Position numbers and translations under genes: made by a program. From contig JAJYRQ010000007.1 of the NCBI GenBank assembly GCA_021794015.1, positions 9,755-73,754 of the forward strand: a DNA stretch of 64,000 bases. Direction: 5' to 3'. Below the pieces are notes generated by a model. That model saw only the letters and a list, made by a program, of their open reading frames with translations. It searched no databases and had not been told where the DNA came from. Positions 11,963 to 63,569 of the stretch are shown piece after piece. How positions within the stretch are numbered: position 1 is the stretch's first letter; every line of letters begins with the position of its first letter. This DNA is from Deltaproteobacteria bacterium (GTDB lineage Bacteria; Desulfobacterota; Binatia; Binatales; Binataceae).

Positions 11963-12673
11963 TTATGCCTGGAAGGTGAAGGCCTGAATGGCCTGTTGAG
12001 TGGTCTGGTCGATCGTGCTGACGGCGTGCATCGCGGATTCGTAGCTGCGCATCACGTTGACGAGTTCGACCATGCCGGTTACCGGACTGGCGGCCGATTT
12101 TTCCAGGTAGCCCTGCTGCAGGCTGCTTACGGCCGGCTCCTCTGCCGGCAGGGGCGAGCCGTCGGCGTTCTGGTACAGGCCGCTGCCGATCAGCTCGAGA
12201 TTGGCATCGGTGGCGTCGGCCAGTTTGAGATGGCCTTGGAAGACGCCGTTGACCGTCACCGCGCCGTCGCCGTCGATAAGCAGCGTGCCCGGCGGCACCG
12301 CCAGCGGGTCGCCGTCGGGGTTGAGCAGCGGCATACCGGAAGCGTTGAGTAGCGTGCCGTCGGAGGCCACTGCCAGACGGCCGTCGCGGGTGTAGGCTTC
12401 GCCGTTGTCGGTTGCGACGGCCAGGTAGCCGTCTCCCACGATGGCGACATCGAGCGGGTTTGCGGTGCGTTCGAGCATGCCCGGGCCGCCGGCCGGCTCG
12501 GCGCGGGGCGGCGCCGCGTACTGGTAGGGCGAGCCGGCCGCGCTTGCGCTCTGCGCCACTATCTCGAGGCGGCGAAAGCCCGGGGTCGAGGCGTTGGCCA
12601 GGTTGTGGGCCTTGACCTCGAGCACCGCGGCCTGGAAGGCGGCGCCCGAGGCGGCGAGGTAAAGCCCGTTCAT
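11963..12673 (-). CDS. flgF: flagellar proximal rod protein FlgF
   Basis: ATG at 12673 is preceded by AAGGAG and gives 'MNGLYLAASGAAFQAAVLEVKAHNLANASTPGF'. The C-terminus reads 'VELVNVMRSYESAMHAVSTIDQ'. The start overlaps the fliA stop as ATGA. Confidence 0.8.
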   Translation of the reverse strand: MNGLYLAASGAAFQAAVLEVKAHNLANASTPGFRRLEIVAQSASAAGSPYQYAAPPRAEPAGGPGMLERTANPLDVAIVGDGYLAVATDNGEAYTRDGRLAVASDGTLLNASGMPLLNPDGDPLAVPPGTLLIDGDGAVTVNGVFQGHLKLADATDANLELIGSGLYQNADGSPLPAEEPAVSSLQQGYLEKSAASPVTGMVELVNVMRSYESAMHAVSTIDQTTQQAIQAFTFQA

Positions 12674-57123: not shown

Positions 57124-58119
57124 TCAAATCCGAATCCGCTCAACCTCGTCGAGTGCGACCGCGTCGCGGGTGCGGTCGTAGAGCTTGGTGGTGCGCGGCG
57201 ACTCGTGCGCGGCGATCTGCTGGGCGTGCTCCAGCGTACCGCCGTTTTGCAGGTAGGTGGTGATGCCGGTTGCGCGGAAGGTGTGGCAGCAAGTCGAGTA
57301 GGGCAGCCCGGCCTTTAATGCCCGCCGCTTGATCATTTGCAGGACGTCGATCCGTGTAAGCGGGTTGGCCGCCAGCCGTCCTCCCTTGCGCACCGTCCGG
57401 AACAGCGGCCCCTTGCGCTCGGCCTTAAGCCCGGCTGCGGCGATCCAGGCGTCGATCGCTTCCTCCAGCTTATGATGGCAGGGCACCTCGTGGCGCTTGC
57501 CGCCCTTCTCATGGAGCCGCACCCAGGCGCGCCGGCCCTGGCTGAAGTAGTCCTCGACCCGCATCGCCACGACCGCTCCGACCCGGGCAAAGCTGTAGAC
57601 CATGGTTGCGATCAGCGCCCGGTCGCGAACGCCGATTAACGTATCGGTTTCAATTGAATCGATCAGCCGTCGGGTCTCCTCGGCGCTTAAAACCGGCGTC
57701 TTGCCCCGCTTGATAACGTATTTCGGCCCGCGCACCGAGCCGGCCGGATTGGAACGCAGGATGCCGCCGGTGACCAGGTAGTCAAAAAGCCGGCGAATCG
57801 CCGCCAGGTGTTGCTTGACGGTTGGCTTGGCCGCCCTTTGCTGAAGTCTTTCGACGTAGGCGGCCACCACGGTCGGCCCGATATCGTCCAGACTGAAGCG
57901 GCGCCGATCGCAGAAATCAAAGAACTGCCTTACCGCGCGGGCGTAGGCCAGGCGCGTGTTGCGGTTGCGAATCGCGGCGGCGAAAAACTCGATGAACCGC
58001 CGGCTTGCCTGCTCGCCGCCGGCACGGATCGCCGCCGGCAGGGCCTCCATTCCCGCCCGGACAAGGGCCGGCGGCGGCGCAACCTCGTCCGTCAGAAGAA
58101 TCGGCGCTTTGCCTGACAT
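57124..58119 (-). CDS. tyrosine-type site-specific recombinase/integrase
   Basis: N-terminal SAM-like domain and a C-terminal catalytic box 'HTFRATGITTYLQNGGTLEHAQQIAAHESPRTTKLYDRT' with the R...HxxR...Y signature. Confidence 0.85.
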   Translation of the reverse strand: MSGKAPILLTDEVAPPPALVRAGMEALPAAIRAGGEQASRRFIEFFAAAIRNRNTRLAYARAVRQFFDFCDRRRFSLDDIGPTVVAAYVERLQQRAAKPTVKQHLAAIRRLFDYLVTGGILRSNPAGSVRGPKYVIKRGKTPVLSAEETRRLIDSIETDTLIGVRDRALIATMVYSFARVGAVVAMRVEDYFSQGRRAWVRLHEKGGKRHEVPCHHKLEEAIDAWIAAAGLKAERKGPLFRTVRKGGRLAANPLTRIDVLQMIKRRALKAGLPYSTCCHTFRATGITTYLQNGGTLEHAQQIAAHESPRTTKLYDRTRDAVALDEVERIRI

Positions 58120-58997: not shown

Positions 58998-59361
58998 TCG
59001 CAGCGATCCCTATCACGACGCCTGTCGAGAAGCTCTGAGGGAGATCGACGACCCGCTCGGCACCGTGTGGCCCGCTTTTACGGAAGCGATGTATTTGCTC
59101 AGATCATCCGCGCAGGCGCAGCGTGCGTTGTGGGACATGATCAATGTGGGCGCGGTGCGCTTCATGCCTCTCGGGAGCGACGACTGTCCCCGCATCCGTG
59201 AGCTAATGTGGAAATATCGCGATTTGCCGATGGACCTCGCGGACGCCGCTTTGGTCCGGTTGGCTGAACGTGAACGCCTGCGGCGCATTTTCACCGTGGA
59301 CCGTCAAGACTTCGAGGTTTACAGGCCGCATCGGCTCGGCCGTTTCGAGATTATTCCTTGA
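58951..59361 (+). CDS. vapC: PIN-domain toxin VapC
   Basis: 'MSTVLVDAGPLVALIDRSDPYH...DLADAALVRLAERERLRRIFTVDRQDF' PIN acidic residues. The internal ATG at 58951 is preferred to the ORF-track start at 58915. Confidence 0.7.
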   Translation: MSTVLVDAGPLVALIDRSDPYHDACREALREIDDPLGTVWPAFTEAMYLLRSSAQAQRALWDMINVGAVRFMPLGSDDCPRIRELMWKYRDLPMDLADAALVRLAERERLRRIFTVDRQDFEVYRPHRLGRFEIIP

Positions 59362-59402
59362 GCTTTCCCCGCCCGGGACAGGCGCTCAGCACACCGGCGC
59401 CT

Positions 59403-59882
59403 CGCTTTCTCCTGGACCGGATATTTCTCGACGCCAACGTACTGTCTTCGGCCGCATACCTGAAGAATTCCCGGCTGGGCCGGCTCTGACGGCTTGAAGA
59501 TGCCGAGCTTCTGAGCTCGGCCTTCGCCGTCGAGCAAGCGCGACGCAACCTGGCCTTGGACCGTCGCGCGGCGCTGGCCCGCCTTGAACGGCTGACCCTT
59601 GCGCTGAAACTGCTCAACCCGCCGCGCGACCTCAAGCTGCCGGCAGGCGTCCGGCTTGACTTCAACGATCAGCCGATCCTGCTGGCCGCGATCCACGGCA
59701 AGGCTGATTTTCTGCTGACCGGCGACGGCCGCCACTTCGGCCATCTTTTCGGCAAGCGCATCGAGGGCGCGATGGTGTTGCGGCCGGCGCAGTACTTCCA
59801 GCGCCGGGGGCGCCGCCGCTTTCCCGCCCGGAACCACCGCCTCGCCGACCATGGGCAAGCATTGGACTTAGTCCGAGGCTAA
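59403..59882 (+). pseudogene. PIN-domain toxin-like gene interrupted by an in-frame TGA at 59487-59489
   Basis: Frame 0 reads 'LDRIFLDANVLSSAAYLKNSRLGRL*RLEDAELLSSAF...DFNDQPILLAAIHGKADFLLTGDGRHFGHL', so the N- and C-terminal PIN motifs are separated by a single TGA. There is no ATG at the 5' end. Confidence 0.45.
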
Positions 59883-59886
59883 GTCT

Positions 59887-60135
59887 ATGATCAGCGACAT
59901 GAGCCGAGCGGTCAACGTACACGAAGCCAAAACGCGCTTCTCGAAGCTGCTCAAGCGCGTCGAACTCGGCGAAGAGGTGGTAATTGCCAAAGCCGGCCGC
60001 CCGGTGGCGCGCCTGGTTCCGTTTGTACTTGCCGGAGCCTTGCGGCGGCCCGGTACCGCCAAAGGTCGAATCACGGTTGCGCCTGACTTCGACGCGCCGC
60101 TCTCCGAAGAACTCGCAAGCGCCTTCCTCGGGTGA
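59887..60135 (+). CDS. Phd/YefM-family antitoxin (VapB-type)
   Basis: 'RAVNVHEAKTRFSKLLKRVELGEEVVIAKAGRPVARLVPF'. Its stop overlaps the vapC GTG as GTGA. Confidence 0.7.
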   Translation: MISDMSRAVNVHEAKTRFSKLLKRVELGEEVVIAKAGRPVARLVPFVLAGALRRPGTAKGRITVAPDFDAPLSEELASAFLG

Positions 60136-60518
60136 AGCTTCTGCTCGACACGCACGCCTTTCTTTGGTGGGTTAGCGACAATCCCAAGCTCTCGCCTCGC
60201 GCGCGCCGGCTAATCGCCGCCGGCACAAACCAAGTCTTCTTCAGCGCCGCCAGCGCCTGGGAAATAGCAATCAATACGGGCCTGGGCCGGCTAACAGTGG
60301 CCGGCGACCTGCAAGAGTTTATGCTCGAGCAGCTAAGGCTCAACGGCTTCGAGGTGCTGCCAATCCACCTCAAGCATGCGCTCTTAACCCACCGGCTGCC
60401 GCCACACCACAGCGACCCGTTTGACCGGATGCTGGTTGCCCAAGCGATGGCTGAGGGCTTGGCGATCCTGAGCGCCGATCCGGCGCTTGGCCGCTACCGG
60501 GTGCGCGTGGTCTGGTGA
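60132..60518 (+). CDS. vapC: PIN-domain toxin VapC
   Basis: 'KLLLDTHAFLWW...SAASAWEIAIN...SDPFDRMLVAQAMAEGLAILSADPAL'. Confidence 0.8.
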   Translation: MKLLLDTHAFLWWVSDNPKLSPRARRLIAAGTNQVFFSAASAWEIAINTGLGRLTVAGDLQEFMLEQLRLNGFEVLPIHLKHALLTHRLPPHHSDPFDRMLVAQAMAEGLAILSADPALGRYRVRVVW

Positions 60519-60519
60519 G

Positions 60520-61620
60520 CGGGCGGATCGCACCACCATCGAGGAGCAAAGCGCGGGCTTCGCCAGGCAGCTTCCAGCGCAGAGGCCGGCAATCGACTCA
60601 ACCACCGCTTCCGCGCCGCAGGCGGCGCCGTCATTATTGCTAATTGCATATTGCAGTGACAGAGTCGTCCTGAGCCGGCTCGTTTGGTGCGTGATTCTCG
60701 GCTGCAGTTGCCACGCGGAGAATCGTAACGTTTCGCCCGCGCTGCGGCAGCATAACCCGGGATTCCCCTCGGCAGGGACACGCGTCGCGCATCCCCGCAT
60801 TGCACTCCCGCTGGCCGGGCAAGCTGTCGTGCGGCGAGCACCGCGCGGGGGAGTGACAGCAGTGGGGCGCGCACCTCCTTTTCCTGATTCCTCTCCCCCG
60901 CCGGGGGAGAGGATCAAGGAGAGGGGGGCGCACCGCGCAAGCGGAGTCGAAGGCAGAAGGGGGGCGCACCCAGAGGCTCGAGGTGGCGCCAGCGGCCCCC
61001 CTCACCCTTCCCTCTCCCCCCAAGGGGAGAGGGAGACAAGAACGAGCACCGCGCGCGGGAATGACGGCAGTGGGGCGCGCGGCTCCTACTTGTCACCCCC
61101 GCGCTCCCTTCTCCCTGTCACCCTGAGCGAAGCGAAGGGCCTACGCGAAGCGATTTGTCCTCCAGCGGCGTGGCGAACCCACCTGCCTGCGCCGACGCGC
61201 CAGGCAGGTCGCTGCGCGTAGATTCTTCGCTCCGCAGACCGCGCTCAGAATGACATCCGCGGTCGACGGTCACCGGTGAGGCTGCCTCCAGCACGAGCAG
61301 GGCTGCCCTGCAGCGAGCGCCGCGCGGAAATGACGGCAGTGGGGCGTCCGGCTGCTGCTTGTCACCCCCGCGCGTGGCCGTTGCATCGCGGCAGGGACAC
61401 GCGTCGCGCATCCCCTTTTCCTGATTCCTCTCCCCCGCCGGGGGAGAGGATCAAGGAGAGGGGGGACGCTCCGCGCAAGCGCAGTCGAAGGAAGAGGGGG
61501 GACGCACCGCGCGCGAGGGGTCCCGGGCCCACGGCGCCACGCCATCGCGTGCCGCCTGGCTCGTGTGCCGACCAGCGCGGCGTTACGCTCCCGCTGGCCG
61601 TGCCGCACCCGAGGTGCTCG
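60520..61620. repeat. non-coding block of mosaic direct repeats and GC-rich hairpins
   Basis: A 26-nt exact direct repeat (GGCAGGGACACGCGTCGCGCATCCCC) lies at 60771-60796 and 61390-61415. A 52-nt exact repeat lies at 60877-60928 and 61414-61465 and extends to about 95 nt at roughly 90% identity. Three copies of a CGCGCGG..ATGAC.GCAGTGGGGCG unit lie at 60843, 61053 and 61320. Hairpins CTCTCCCCC-gcc-GGGGGAGAG and CCCTCTCCCC-caa-GGGGAGAGGG are present. Confidence 0.7.
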
Positions 61621-61751: not shown

Positions 61752-63569
61752 TTAGACTCCCCACAGCCGTTCCCGACAGAACGCTTCGGCCTGAGAGAAT
61801 CTGCGTATCGATCCGCCAAAGAGGCCTGCCCGGAGTGCCGGCCATTCCTCTTTCGCCTCTGCGGCCTCTCGGACGATCTCAACCCATGTCTCCTTAGCTT
61901 GCCACGCGAAGCGCCCTGGTAGCGTTATCGGCCAGTCAGGGGCAACATCCCTATGGACGAGCGTGAGGAAGCACTCGAAGCGGTGGAAGCATGCGTCATA
62001 TTGAGCGTCCTCAGGCAGCAGGTCCTGAAATGATTCACGGAGTGCGGCGTGAATGTGCTGGCTGAATGGTGTCGGCTTGGAATGGAGAACACCCTTAACC
62101 CCTGGCAGGTTGACCGCCAAGCGCTCATCGAGAATCATTCCCGTATTCACTAGCCGGATCAATGGAAGTTCGCCCGCTACGGAGCGCACCTTAATTTGCG
62201 GGGAAAGCAACGCCGCGAGCGCCTCGTACCCTGGCGCCGCCACCGCTGCAACTCCTCCAGCGTATAAAACGAGCAATGCCGGGTACCACCTGAAGTTGAA
62301 CCACTCCCCATCGCCAAAATGCGTTACCGGAGGGTTCGCGATCCGCCTGAGGCACCCAGCCCAATATGCCGCATGCTTCGGCGCACCCCAACGGCATCCC
62401 GTCAGAACAATGGCGCGAAGACGCCCGGTGAGCGACTCGTACTCTTTAAGCCGACCGGCAATTTCCGGAACCCTAAACGGCACGCCCAGAACGGGAAACC
62501 GAGCGTCGGTAAGCTTGGTGTGAACCGTCTCGGTTTCGCCAATGACAAGCTTGTGAAGTTCGATCCTATGTATGTCGTCGACCAGATATTTCTGCAACCG
62601 ATCGATGACATCAGCGGTCGCGGGCACTTTGGGCGCTTCGGTGTTCGGAAGCTCGACTAGCTCTGTGCTCTCTTCCGGCGCAATCGCGCGTACTAACTCC
62701 GCTATGACGTATTCGAGACCCCTTGCAGAGGATACAGCCACCCGGTCTGCCAATGTTGGCGAGTAGGCTCTTATCTCATTTGGGCCAATTTCATGCCATA
62801 CCGGCAGTAAGACTTTCGCCCCGCCAACTTCGCGCGCAACCAATCCGTCCAATTCCTTTTGAGGCCAGTTCTTCTGCAAAAAACTTGGGCTAATTACCAC
62901 CACGCCGAACTTGGAGCGTGCCAAACCCCGATCAATTGACTGGCGCAAGCTGTCTCCTACCCTAAGTGTGGCTTCATCGAACCACACCCTGAGCCCGCGC
63001 TCCTGTAGCCCTTTAGCCAGCGGACGCACAAAAGCCTCCTTGTCTTCGCTCGCGTGGCTCACGAACACCTCCCACTCTGCGTAGGGTGTCCCTTGGCCTC
63101 GCGGAATGACAGGCTCTTTGGGCAGAGCCTCCCAGAGAATATCACTGGGTTCACAGTCGACGGCTCCGGCAAGGTTCTTCACCTTTTCGACGCCGTCGGC
63201 GAGCGAACTTACCGCTCCCTCCGGCCAACCATCTTGGGCTGTTTTCGCACACTCCTGTTGACGCCTCTGCGTCACAAACATCAGCGCAGCCTTCACATAT
63301 CGCAGGTTCCCTACCGAGATCCCCCTGACGACGATCCCCTGGGCGTTCGCCTCGCCTAGTTGTTGCTCCCCAAATTCGAGTAGCTGGGTCAGGTCAGCGA
63401 CTTCGTGTTCATATGGTGGGTATGTCGCACCATGTTCGATCGCGCGCTGGTTCCACGCCTTGAGCTCGTCGCAAAGAAGACGCAGCCCTTCCTGGACAAC
63501 TTGGTAACGCATGCGCGAAAGCCTGAAATCTCCGGTAAGCGTCGAGTCAAACTCATAGTGATAGCCCAT
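61752..63569 (-). CDS. 605-aa protein with a central TIR domain flanked by unassigned N-terminal (about 160 aa) and C-terminal (about 300 aa) regions
   Basis: 'EVFVSHASEDKEAFVRPLAKGLQERGLRVWFDEATLRVGDSLRQSIDRGLARSKFGVVVISPSFLQKNWPQKELDGLVAR...VLLPVWH' matches a bacterial TIR pattern: the FISHASEDK-type betaA strand, the VW.D...L.VGDSL loop and the W..KEL helix with a conserved Glu. GAGGTGA Shine-Dalgarno 7 nt before the ATG. The gene is lower in GC than its neighbours. Confidence 0.8.
   Translation of the reverse strand: MGYHYEFDSTLTGDFRLSRMRYQVVQEGLRLLCDELKAWNQRAIEHGATYPPYEHEVADLTQLLEFGEQQLGEANAQGIVVRGISVGNLRYVKAALMFVTQRRQQECAKTAQDGWPEGAVSSLADGVEKVKNLAGAVDCEPSDILWEALPKEPVIPRGQGTPYAEWEVFVSHASEDKEAFVRPLAKGLQERGLRVWFDEATLRVGDSLRQSIDRGLARSKFGVVVISPSFLQKNWPQKELDGLVAREVGGAKVLLPVWHEIGPNEIRAYSPTLADRVAVSSARGLEYVIAELVRAIAPEESTELVELPNTEAPKVPATADVIDRLQKYLVDDIHRIELHKLVIGETETVHTKLTDARFPVLGVPFRVPEIAGRLKEYESLTGRLRAIVLTGCRWGAPKHAAYWAGCLRRIANPPVTHFGDGEWFNFRWYPALLVLYAGGVAAVAAPGYEALAALLSPQIKVRSVAGELPLIRLVNTGMILDERLAVNLPGVKGVLHSKPTPFSQHIHAALRESFQDLLPEDAQYDACFHRFECFLTLVHRDVAPDWPITLPGRFAWQAKETWVEIVREAAEAKEEWPALRAGLFGGSIRRFSQAEAFCRERLWGV

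Follow-up and report, generated by a model that had tools for sequence, protein, structure and literature searches.

The 64,000-nt window analyzed here, meaning the whole stretch of DNA, contains a 1.1-kb block of noncoding repeats, located between the stop codon of a VapC/PIN toxin gene (position 60518) and the stop codon of a convergent gene encoding a TIR-domain protein (position 61752). We consider it probable (roughly 70%) that this block is a local array of a dispersed family of mosaic hairpin repeats related to the NTS and SRM repeats associated with Ssn proteins, with an organization like that of Neisseria intergenic mosaic elements (NIMEs) or enterobacterial mosaic elements (BIMEs), and that it is a hot spot of recombination. 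The repeat family is a further case of the kind described in 2025 and does not constitute a novel type.

The NTS repeat of Neisseria is 28 nt long (CGTCATTCCCGCGMAVGCGGGAATCYRG) and includes the older dRS3 repeat (Chenal et al. 2025, PMC11893778). SsnA, a 94-aa GIY-YIG protein, binds NTS as single-stranded DNA (ssDNA) and cuts just upstream of it; cutting needs bases just 5' of the palindrome, binding needs the C just after the palindrome, and the Y6A substitution abolishes cutting while binding is kept (PMC11893778). The same study reported that SsnA does not act on RNA, and that related hairpins, named SRM, flank ssn genes in several bacterial phyla (PMC11893778). We reached this study through a literature search with the string GTCATTCCCGCG.

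The similarity between the block and the NTS repeat lies in a recurring linker, unit G. An earlier note, made from the sequence of the window alone, had pointed out three copies of a CGCGCGG..ATGAC..GCAGTGGGGCG unit; these are present at 60844, 61052, and 61321, the first of them truncated. All three copies are on the plus strand. Copy 1 (60841-60872) consists of the left half only (CCGCGCGGGGGAGTGAC followed by AGCAGTGGGGCGCGC), fused straight onto the next module. Copy 2 (61049-61108) is a complete inverted repeat, with CCGCGCGCGGGAATGAC at 61049-61065, then 26 nt, then GTCACCCCCGCGC at 61092-61104, and copy 3 (61318-61377) is likewise complete, with arms at 61318-61334 and 61361-61377. Read on the minus strand, the left arm of copy 2 is CGTCATTCCCGCG, a match to the NTS 5' half at 13 of 13 bases, and copy 3 is CGTCATTTCCGCG; in both copies, the oriented 5' flank (C/T)GTCAY stands directly before the stem. 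The right arms of unit G and both ends of another module, M7, start with GTCAC or GTCAT (M7 has GTCAC at its start and AATGAC at its end). Within the block, GTCAY occurs 8 times versus 1.65 expected, a five-fold enrichment (P = 3e-4).

We propose that this linker corresponds to half of an oriented hairpin frame, 5'-(C/T)GTCAY-TCC...GGA-ATCCCGG-3', with unit G composed of two frame halves face to face. In this lineage the frame takes two forms, one compact (~41 nt) and one split, with 70-200 nt of modules M2/M3 or M9 (or, in a looser match, H/hp2) inside; frames and modules follow one another head to tail with an array period of ~210-270 nt. Loci L001-L178 are contigs or loci fetched from related assemblies or through homolog or pattern searches, each with its own coordinates. 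Compact hairpins of 41 nt with the ends of split frames were found in L013 and in the flanks of ssn homologs. The compact frame in L013 (CGTCATTCCCCCGCGCG-TGTCGG-GCGCGCGCGAGGAATCCCGG, 12505-12545) corresponds to unit G copy 2 of the window plus the missing right half, and its fold is that of an NTS-like hairpin (z -2.3; all z-scores are from folding as ssDNA relative to shuffled controls). In L160 (10123-10161), the compact-frame sequence is present without a stable fold. An alignment of 14 compact frames showed that GTC and the stem base are conserved, and that two pairs are kept by compensatory changes. As for the split form, a frame search identified GTCAC-TCCCC...GGGGA-ATCCCGGG on the minus strand of the window at 60758-60857, with M3 and M2 as its interior, and a split frame around M9 beside the ssn gene closes (z -1.9). 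The looser match places H plus hp2 between GATTCC and GGAATGAC.

A putative Ssn-type gene of the lineage is located inside arrays of these same modules. L159 (1523-1834) carries a gene for a 103-aa, single-domain GIY-YIG protein (Pfam score of 41 bits versus a cut-off of 22.6); upstream of the gene are reversed copies of M2 and M3, and downstream the modules follow in the order M9-G-M2-H-hp2-G-M2-H-hp2-G. The same embedding was observed in L159, L161-L163, and L169-L178. Translation from a possible GTG start at L159:1553 would yield a 93-aa protein, nearer the usual family length. We used TBLASTN with a homolog 68% identical to the lineage protein; this analysis identified one match in each of two Neisseria gonorrhoeae chromosomes misfiled among plasmids, and the open reading frame (ORF) of N. 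gonorrhoeae SsnA was recovered from such a chromosome in the PLSDB plasmid collection. The ORF fits the published numbering (Y6, Y17, E64, 94 aa), and 7 exact NTS copies lie around it. The lineage protein aligned to it with 43% aa identity (E 5e-22). Because the identity is to an ORF with the published residue numbering and NTS flanks, the L159 protein belongs, as judged from its sequence, to the SsnA family. The exact Ssn protein was found in the same samples as contigs carrying the VapC or TIR genes of the window (ERZ27237162, ERZ27237313, ERZ27233557, and ERZ27237265), and also in metagenome-assembled genomes (MAGs) of the same DAHZE series as the window's, for example GCA_027403005.1 and GCA_027403095.1. 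More than half of the Ssn contigs are <2 kb, a length to be expected when a gene lies amid repeats.

More distant homologs have GTCAY...RRATGAC hairpins of their own in their flanks. In L166, where the homolog is 75% identical to the lineage protein, these are CCCGGGATTCCACGCG-AAAAA-CGCGCGTGGAATGACAG and GTCACTCTACGCG...GCGTAGAGTCCCGATCC; in L167 (68% identity), TGTCATTCTACGCG-YCCGT-CGCGTAGAATCCCGA occurs as two exact forward copies, one diverged forward copy, and reversed copies. The homologs in L164 (GC content of 45%) and L165 are each ~55% identical to the lineage protein, and their flanking repeats are of the ...GCTCAGAATGAC and ...GGCTCGCAATGACAGTGGGSCGG types, respectively. The homolog in L164 is flanked by GTCAYYCTGAGCG...GCTCAGAATGAC ends, as found in M7.

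If Ssn acts as SsnA does, the frames would form hairpins in DNA that becomes single stranded (during replication, repair, or DNA uptake), and Ssn would bind them and cut just upstream of GTCAY. Such cutting could modulate recombination of frame-carrying DNA or aid the spread of the frames.

The modules are dispersed in the genome of this population. Maps of 13 loci, drawn with ten modules (A, M2, M3, G, H, hp2, M7, M8, Ae, and M9), showed that these modules recur in changing combinations, sometimes reversed, with 85-100% identity. Within loci of the same metagenomic population that were selected for carrying blocks, we identified at least 16 intergenic contexts (L002, L003, L004 [two], L007 [two], L009, L012, L013, L157, L158, L159 [three], L160, and L162); the 64-kb window contains one block. 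All blocks in the fetched loci lie between called genes. The commonest arrangement is a head-to-tail composite unit of ~268 nt (G-M2-H-hp2), repeated one to four times. In L158 (8652-9599), a gene for an IS110-family transposase (DEDD_Tnp_IS110 and Transposase_20 domains) directly abuts a repeat block. Some IS110 members prefer palindromic repeats, and the arrangement recalls such a preference.

Comparison of related assemblies, which the earlier note had suggested as a way to see whether the block marks a boundary, showed that gene order changes at the block. Contigs with the exact VapC or TIR protein of the window were drawn from >20 independent assemblies, and over the 1.4 kb compared the window is 100% identical to contig DAHZEH010000057.1 (assembly GCA_027403145.1). 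The VapC arm, with its recombinase and toxin-antitoxin (TA) genes, is constant, as is the TIR arm, and the joint between the two arms varies. The left arm is identical in L001-L006, and the sequence to the right of the block differs among assemblies. In a short allele (L005, L006, L008, and L009), position 60820 is joined to 61580, and the 783 bp between two copies of CTCCCGCTGGCCG are gone; these copies lie in the head of M3 (60805-60817, the left junction) and the tail of M8 (61588-61600, the right junction). L002 carries a hybrid of unit G copies 2 and 3, with M7 and everything between them deleted, which is the mark of recombination between the two G copies. Other contigs track the window up to ~60847, ~61030, 61050, or 61104 and then diverge into unrelated genes, which they enter through similar, non-identical repeats. 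At least five different right-hand neighbors of the VapC arm were found, and the alternatives include an enoyl-CoA hydratase gene, type II secretion genes, a methionine-synthase-like gene, and a tRNA gene. The TIR arm is joined to other neighbors through blocks in L012 and L013, and many contigs terminate inside blocks. Thus, with strain differences that go module by module, junctions within shared linkers, and changes in gene order, the repeats behave as recombination substrates.

Two of these junctions have further features. On a 173-kb contig (ERZ27237162:k141_773034, represented by L004 and L014), the VapC and TIR arms, which are adjacent in the window, are ~110 kb apart in the same orientation, and each adjoins a repeat block; this separation is either a real translocation or an assembly path through repeats. 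In another strain's version of the VapC junction, a 1.1-kb repeat block ends ~170 nt from a tRNA gene (L007:2350-2424).

Several results weigh against a relationship to the Ssn repeats, or against activity of such a system at this locus. The window contains no intact compact frame, only half-sites and one split frame, and closure of the outer stem of that split frame (60758-60857) is not predicted (z -0.3); therefore, the array in the window looks reshuffled and partly decayed. The inverted repeats of the G unit (the ATGAC unit) have no fold significance (z -1.4 and -0.9). The degenerate SRM pattern published in PMC11893778 (HGTCWYN(0-2)YYVSBRHN(0-5)WNVSBRGN(0-2)RNCYNB) had 0 hits in the window, where 0.6 are expected by chance, and 0 hits in L159-L165. 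As a positive control, the pattern had 8 hits around N. gonorrhoeae ssnA. When traced by hand, it misses evident hairpins beside the homologs that are 68-75% identical to the lineage protein, which indicates that the pattern is narrow and weakens the negative result in the window. The tie of H, hp2, and M7 to Ssn consists of co-occurrence only, and some of the alternative neighbors described above could be assembly chimeras. A search with the family hidden Markov model found no ssn gene in the window, and none was seen within 10 kb or among the contigs listed for the MAG of the window. In addition, the lineage Ssn reads YYVHVM, so that a His (codon CAC) occupies the position of the first catalytic Tyr in the GIY motif; this change is identical in all contigs read (L159, L161, L162, and L169-L178), whereas nine full-length homologs (YFVYIM, YYVYIL, and similar) and Neisseria SsnA (Tyr6) have Tyr at that position. 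Given the His residue and the lack of ssn in the window and in its MAG's contigs, we have lower confidence in activity at the window locus. By analogy with the Y6A variant, His in place of Tyr could mean a protein that binds without cutting.

Among the alternatives, the one that best withstands these data, and that we nonetheless regard as unlikely, holds that the modules are ordinary lineage-specific junk repeats of the type of repetitive extragenic palindromes (REPs), BIMEs, or miniature inverted-repeat transposable elements (MITEs), without any functional tie to Ssn. They would have been spread by another transposase or by recombination alone, and ssn would merely lie in one repeat-rich intergenic region. 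The lack of hits to the strict SRM pattern and the restriction of the window to half-sites fit this explanation, as do the IS110-family transposase gene abutting the block in L158, the MITE-like terminal inverted repeats and long hairpin of M7, and the occurrence of the H/hp2 hairpin type across many phyla in 8-kb loci that contain no ssn gene. An Ssn-unrelated REP/MITE origin is possible for H, hp2, and M7. What argues against the explanation is that the linker matches the NTS 5' half at 13 of 13 bases, that compact frames of the lineage carry both flanks (GTCAT and AATCC.GG), and that GTCAY-type hairpins flank each of five independent ssn homologs (43% to 75% identity). Moreover, the Pfam gene listings of the fetched loci include no gene for an IS200/IS605-type Y1 transposase, the kind known as REP-associated tyrosine transposase (RAYT). 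REP/MITE-like elements were also among the options in the earlier note, and as a description of the repeats that option held up: the modules are dispersed, strictly intergenic, hairpin-forming, reshuffled across loci, and strain-variable.

A bolder version of the Ssn relationship, which we hold to be quite doubtful, is that the arrays are products of an active mobile system driven by the GIY-YIG enzyme. Ssn would cut ssDNA at the GTCAY frames, and modules H/hp2, M2/M3, M7, and M9 would be inserted or exchanged there. This would explain split frames with large interiors, half-site linkers, and differences in modules between strains that are 97-100% identical. The authors of PMC11893778 speculated that the arrangement NTS-ssnA-NTS resembles an insertion sequence (IS). 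If the arrays were such products, they would represent a new class of mosaic, non-autonomous elements with Ssn as the "transposase," and that speculation would become testable on natural variants.

Returning to the array as a set of Ssn-related repeats, it is very improbable that the block instead comprises att- or attC-like sites at which the neighboring Xer-like tyrosine recombinase (57124-58119, minus strand) exchanges island segments or cassettes. The layout is integron-like, with a minus-strand recombinase gene, a plus-strand row of TA genes, and then the block, and gene order in related assemblies breaks exactly at the block. Of the att-like option in the earlier note, the part that stands is the block as a boundary marker; site-specific recombination found no support. 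The recombinase is not an integron integrase (46.7 bits with model TIGR02249 versus a cut-off of 265; the best-scoring models, XerD and XerC, likewise stay below their cut-offs), and we found no repeats common to the block and the recombinase flanks or the spacers between TA genes. The order of the TA row is constant across all assemblies, with variation beginning only in the block, and the junctions lie at several module boundaries (~60820, 60847, ~61030, 61050, and 61104) rather than at a single one. The Pfam listings of the block-bearing loci L157-L160 include no recombinase gene.

Transcription of the block into structured noncoding RNA, the remaining option of the earlier note, is equally improbable: the hairpins are strong, U-G wobbles read from the sequence are consistent with plus-strand H and minus-strand G, and module A has an outward-facing promoter-like site, but no Rfam family reached its threshold (the best, Whalefall-1, scored 25 bits versus 37), the modules occur in both orientations and in any order with strain-variable copy number, the hairpins are not followed by terminators, and the linked protein family acts on ssDNA, with SsnA inactive on RNA (PMC11893778).

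The remaining architecture of the block matches what had been described from the letters alone, including its location between the TA cassettes and the TIR gene. The direct repeats are exact over 27 nt (CGGCAGGGACACGCGTCGCGCATCCCC, at 60770 and 61389) and over 52 nt (60877-60928 and 61414-61465), and BLAST extended the longer one to 104 nt with 92% identity. The hairpin CCTCTCCCCC-gcc-GGGGGAGAGG occurs twice (60890-60912 and 61427-61449), the hairpin CCCTCTCCCC-ccaa-GGGGAGAGGG occurs once (61010-61033), and the arms of the palindrome lie at 61173-61189 and 61201-61217. The repeats were reproduced in 0 of 100 dinucleotide shuffles of the window, and within the 64-kb window the units are unique to the block.

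From left to right on the plus strand, the first module is the outer repeat module A (60635-60756), reversed copies of which (91-95% identity) form the outer block edge in L012 (12638-12754) and L013 (12581-12657); the hairpin of module A itself does not fold significantly better than the controls (z +0.6). Just past the VapC gene is a terminator-like hairpin (60613-60662), in which GCGCCGCAGGCGGCGC precedes CGTCATTATT. The outer edge of module A carries an outward-facing promoter-like site (CTGTCA-18-AATAAT) on the minus strand, and in L012 this edge is directly upstream of a gene of the EPSP synthase family. The core of M2 copy 1 (60770-60796) is the exact 27-mer repeated at 61389-61415; further M2 copies are present in L002, L004, L007, L009, L158, L159, L160, and L162. 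M3 follows (60797-60843; copies in L004, L007, L009, L158, L159, and L160). After the half unit G comes H copy 1 (60872-60970), which is 92-94% identical to H copy 2, has copies in eight other loci, and includes a long imperfect hairpin (60869-60931) built around the first gcc-loop core (DNA fold z -4.8).

Module hp2 (60971-61048) contains the ccaa hairpin (z -2.8), preceded by CCCCCCTCACCC, and has copies in L002, L003, L004, L007, L009, L157-L160, and L162. M7 (61109-61317) separates unit G copies 2 and 3 and has copies in L007 (two, one of them reversed), L157, and L158. Its 138-nt hairpin (61117-61254; z -4.4 and -4.5 for the plus and minus strands, respectively) has the terminal inverted repeats GTCACCCTGAGCG and CGCTCAGAATGAC and an inner palindrome (61173-61217). 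M2 copy 2 (61376-61415) comprises GGCCGTTGCATCG plus the exact 27-mer, and H copy 2 (61414-61508), which shares the exact 52-nt repeat with copy 1, includes the second gcc-loop core hairpin (z -4.2). M8 (61509-61600) is the last module and has copies in L004, L007 (two), and L157.

The type of hairpin found in hp2 (CCCCTCACCC-N2-3-CCCTCTCCCC-loop-GGGGAGAGGG, 60998-61036 in the window) is not specific to this lineage, with instances at L019-L138. Matches to its core pattern came from at least 120 species representatives in GTDB, spread over many phyla (taxa including Sphingomonas, Nostoc, Planctomycetota, Acidobacteriota, and Omnitrophota); among the matches listed, 67 of 144 instances have the conserved 5' flank. 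There was no Rfam match in the ten hp2-type loci scanned and no ssn gene within any of the 8-kb loci, and we found no name for this hairpin type.

The earlier remark that nothing in the block codes convincingly agrees with the results of database searches. ORFs across the block have no Pfam domain, and their database relatives are only other unnamed ORFs. When a translated block ORF was used as a protein query, it matched 26 unnamed, domain-less ORFs on different contigs; we fetched four of these loci, and each is a block with the same repeats between ordinary housekeeping genes. At the gathering threshold, Rfam matched nothing in the window and, in 12 related loci, tRNAs alone; at permissive E-values, it returned microRNA families and Whalefall-1 (25.1 bits versus a threshold of 37, at hp2), which we took as chance matches. 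No tRNA or transfer-messenger RNA was identified in the block. Tandem Repeats Finder detected no repeats there either, owing to the length and mosaic nature of the units. A family-specific 30-mer had 0 matches in GTDB species representatives, and a looser hairpin pattern matched at least 120 unrelated genomes there without recovering the lineage itself. Among JGI metagenomes, the string GGGGGAGAGGATCAAGGAGAG had 18 matches, all in other organisms carrying the generic hairpin, and the lineage was not found. Plasmid and phage collections yielded short matches only (39-46 nt), and a literature search on the hairpin strings yielded only eukaryotic and G-quadruplex papers.

The VapC/PIN toxin gene on the left flank (60132-60518, plus strand; Pfam PIN, E 1.9e-14) is the last gene of the constant arm, in which the recombinase gene is followed by four TA modules on the plus strand. 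Within this arm, a PIN_3-domain gene (59227-59882 in the window) is intact in L005, L006, and L010, where it encodes 174 aa, and broken in the window, leaving a 108-aa ORF at 59556-59882 and a spurious 179-aa ORF on the opposite strand. The TIR-domain gene on the right flank (61752-63569, minus strand) encodes a 605-aa protein (Pfam TIR_2, E 1.2e-21). Matches of this protein to the NCBIfam models for retron-TIR and Thoeris ThcB4 are confined to the TIR domain (residues ~163-277), and its N- and C-terminal regions have no match. A retron noncoding RNA beside the TIR gene was considered and rejected, as the NCBIfam match covers the TIR domain only and no reverse transcriptase is nearby. Past the TIR gene are HTH/Gp49, MazE, and HigB-type modules, and the block therefore lies inside a small defense and TA island.

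The role of Ssn and its repeats outside Neisseria is open (PMC11893778), and the natural variants in this population bear on that question. They include compact, split, and half-site frames, arrays of differing length, and a short and a long allele at one locus; together with breaks in gene order exactly at the repeats, such variants could show whether the repeats merely recombine or actively move. On a practical level, blocks of this kind break metagenome assemblies and yield spurious ORFs, and recognizing them avoids false gene calls and false "island boundaries."

Among known systems, the Neisseria NTS/dRS3 repeats are similar in being oriented hairpins flanked by CGTCAT (5') and AATCC.G (3'), in having many dispersed copies clustered in intergenic regions, and in flanking the ssn gene, which encodes a protein of the same size class as the lineage Ssn. 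Unlike NTS, the stems here are longer and richer in GC, most copies are half-sites or are split by 70-200 nt, and the published SRM pattern does not match them; the lineage Ssn differs from SsnA by the His at the first catalytic Tyr and is known here from its sequence, and the host is an uncultured "Deltaproteobacteria" MAG.

Chromosomal integrons rich in TA cassettes share with the window a tyrosine recombinase gene that reads away from a row of TA genes and imperfect palindromes nearby, as in attC arrays. In contrast to integrons, there is no IntI-type integrase, the TA spacers lack the block repeats, and all repeats are in one block after the last cassette. We rejected an integron on the integrase score and the lack of block repeats in the spacers.

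MITEs such as Correia elements resemble M7, which at 138 nt has 13-nt terminal inverted repeats, forms a long hairpin, and occurs in both orientations; unlike for MITEs, no parent IS with matching ends was found for M7. All full M7 copies share the same flanking module sequence, so that no independent insertion site or target-site duplication can be read. As in enterobacterial REP, BIME, and REPIN systems, the repeats are palindromic and extragenic, the mosaic arrays vary in unit number, and the gene for an enzyme acting on ssDNA hairpins is flanked by repeats; the parallel between REP/RAYT systems and Ssn repeats was drawn in PMC11893778. Unlike in REP/RAYT systems, the enzyme here is a GIY-YIG protein and not a Y1 transposase, and there is no GTAG-type REP head.

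NIMEs are 50-150 bp repeat units bounded by dRS3. The blocks resemble them as intergenic arrays of modules with a short constant linker derived from an inverted repeat, variable among strains and near variable genes. They differ in that the module sequences are unrelated, the linker is often one half of the inverted repeat, and the composite unit (G+M2+H+hp2) has a tandem period of ~268 nt. In the manner of NIMEs and BIMEs, the blocks combine several module families in varying order around a constant linker in strictly intergenic positions, and they are polymorphic: close strains differ by the 783-bp indel and the G2/G3 hybrid deletion, and the composite unit occurs one to four times per array.

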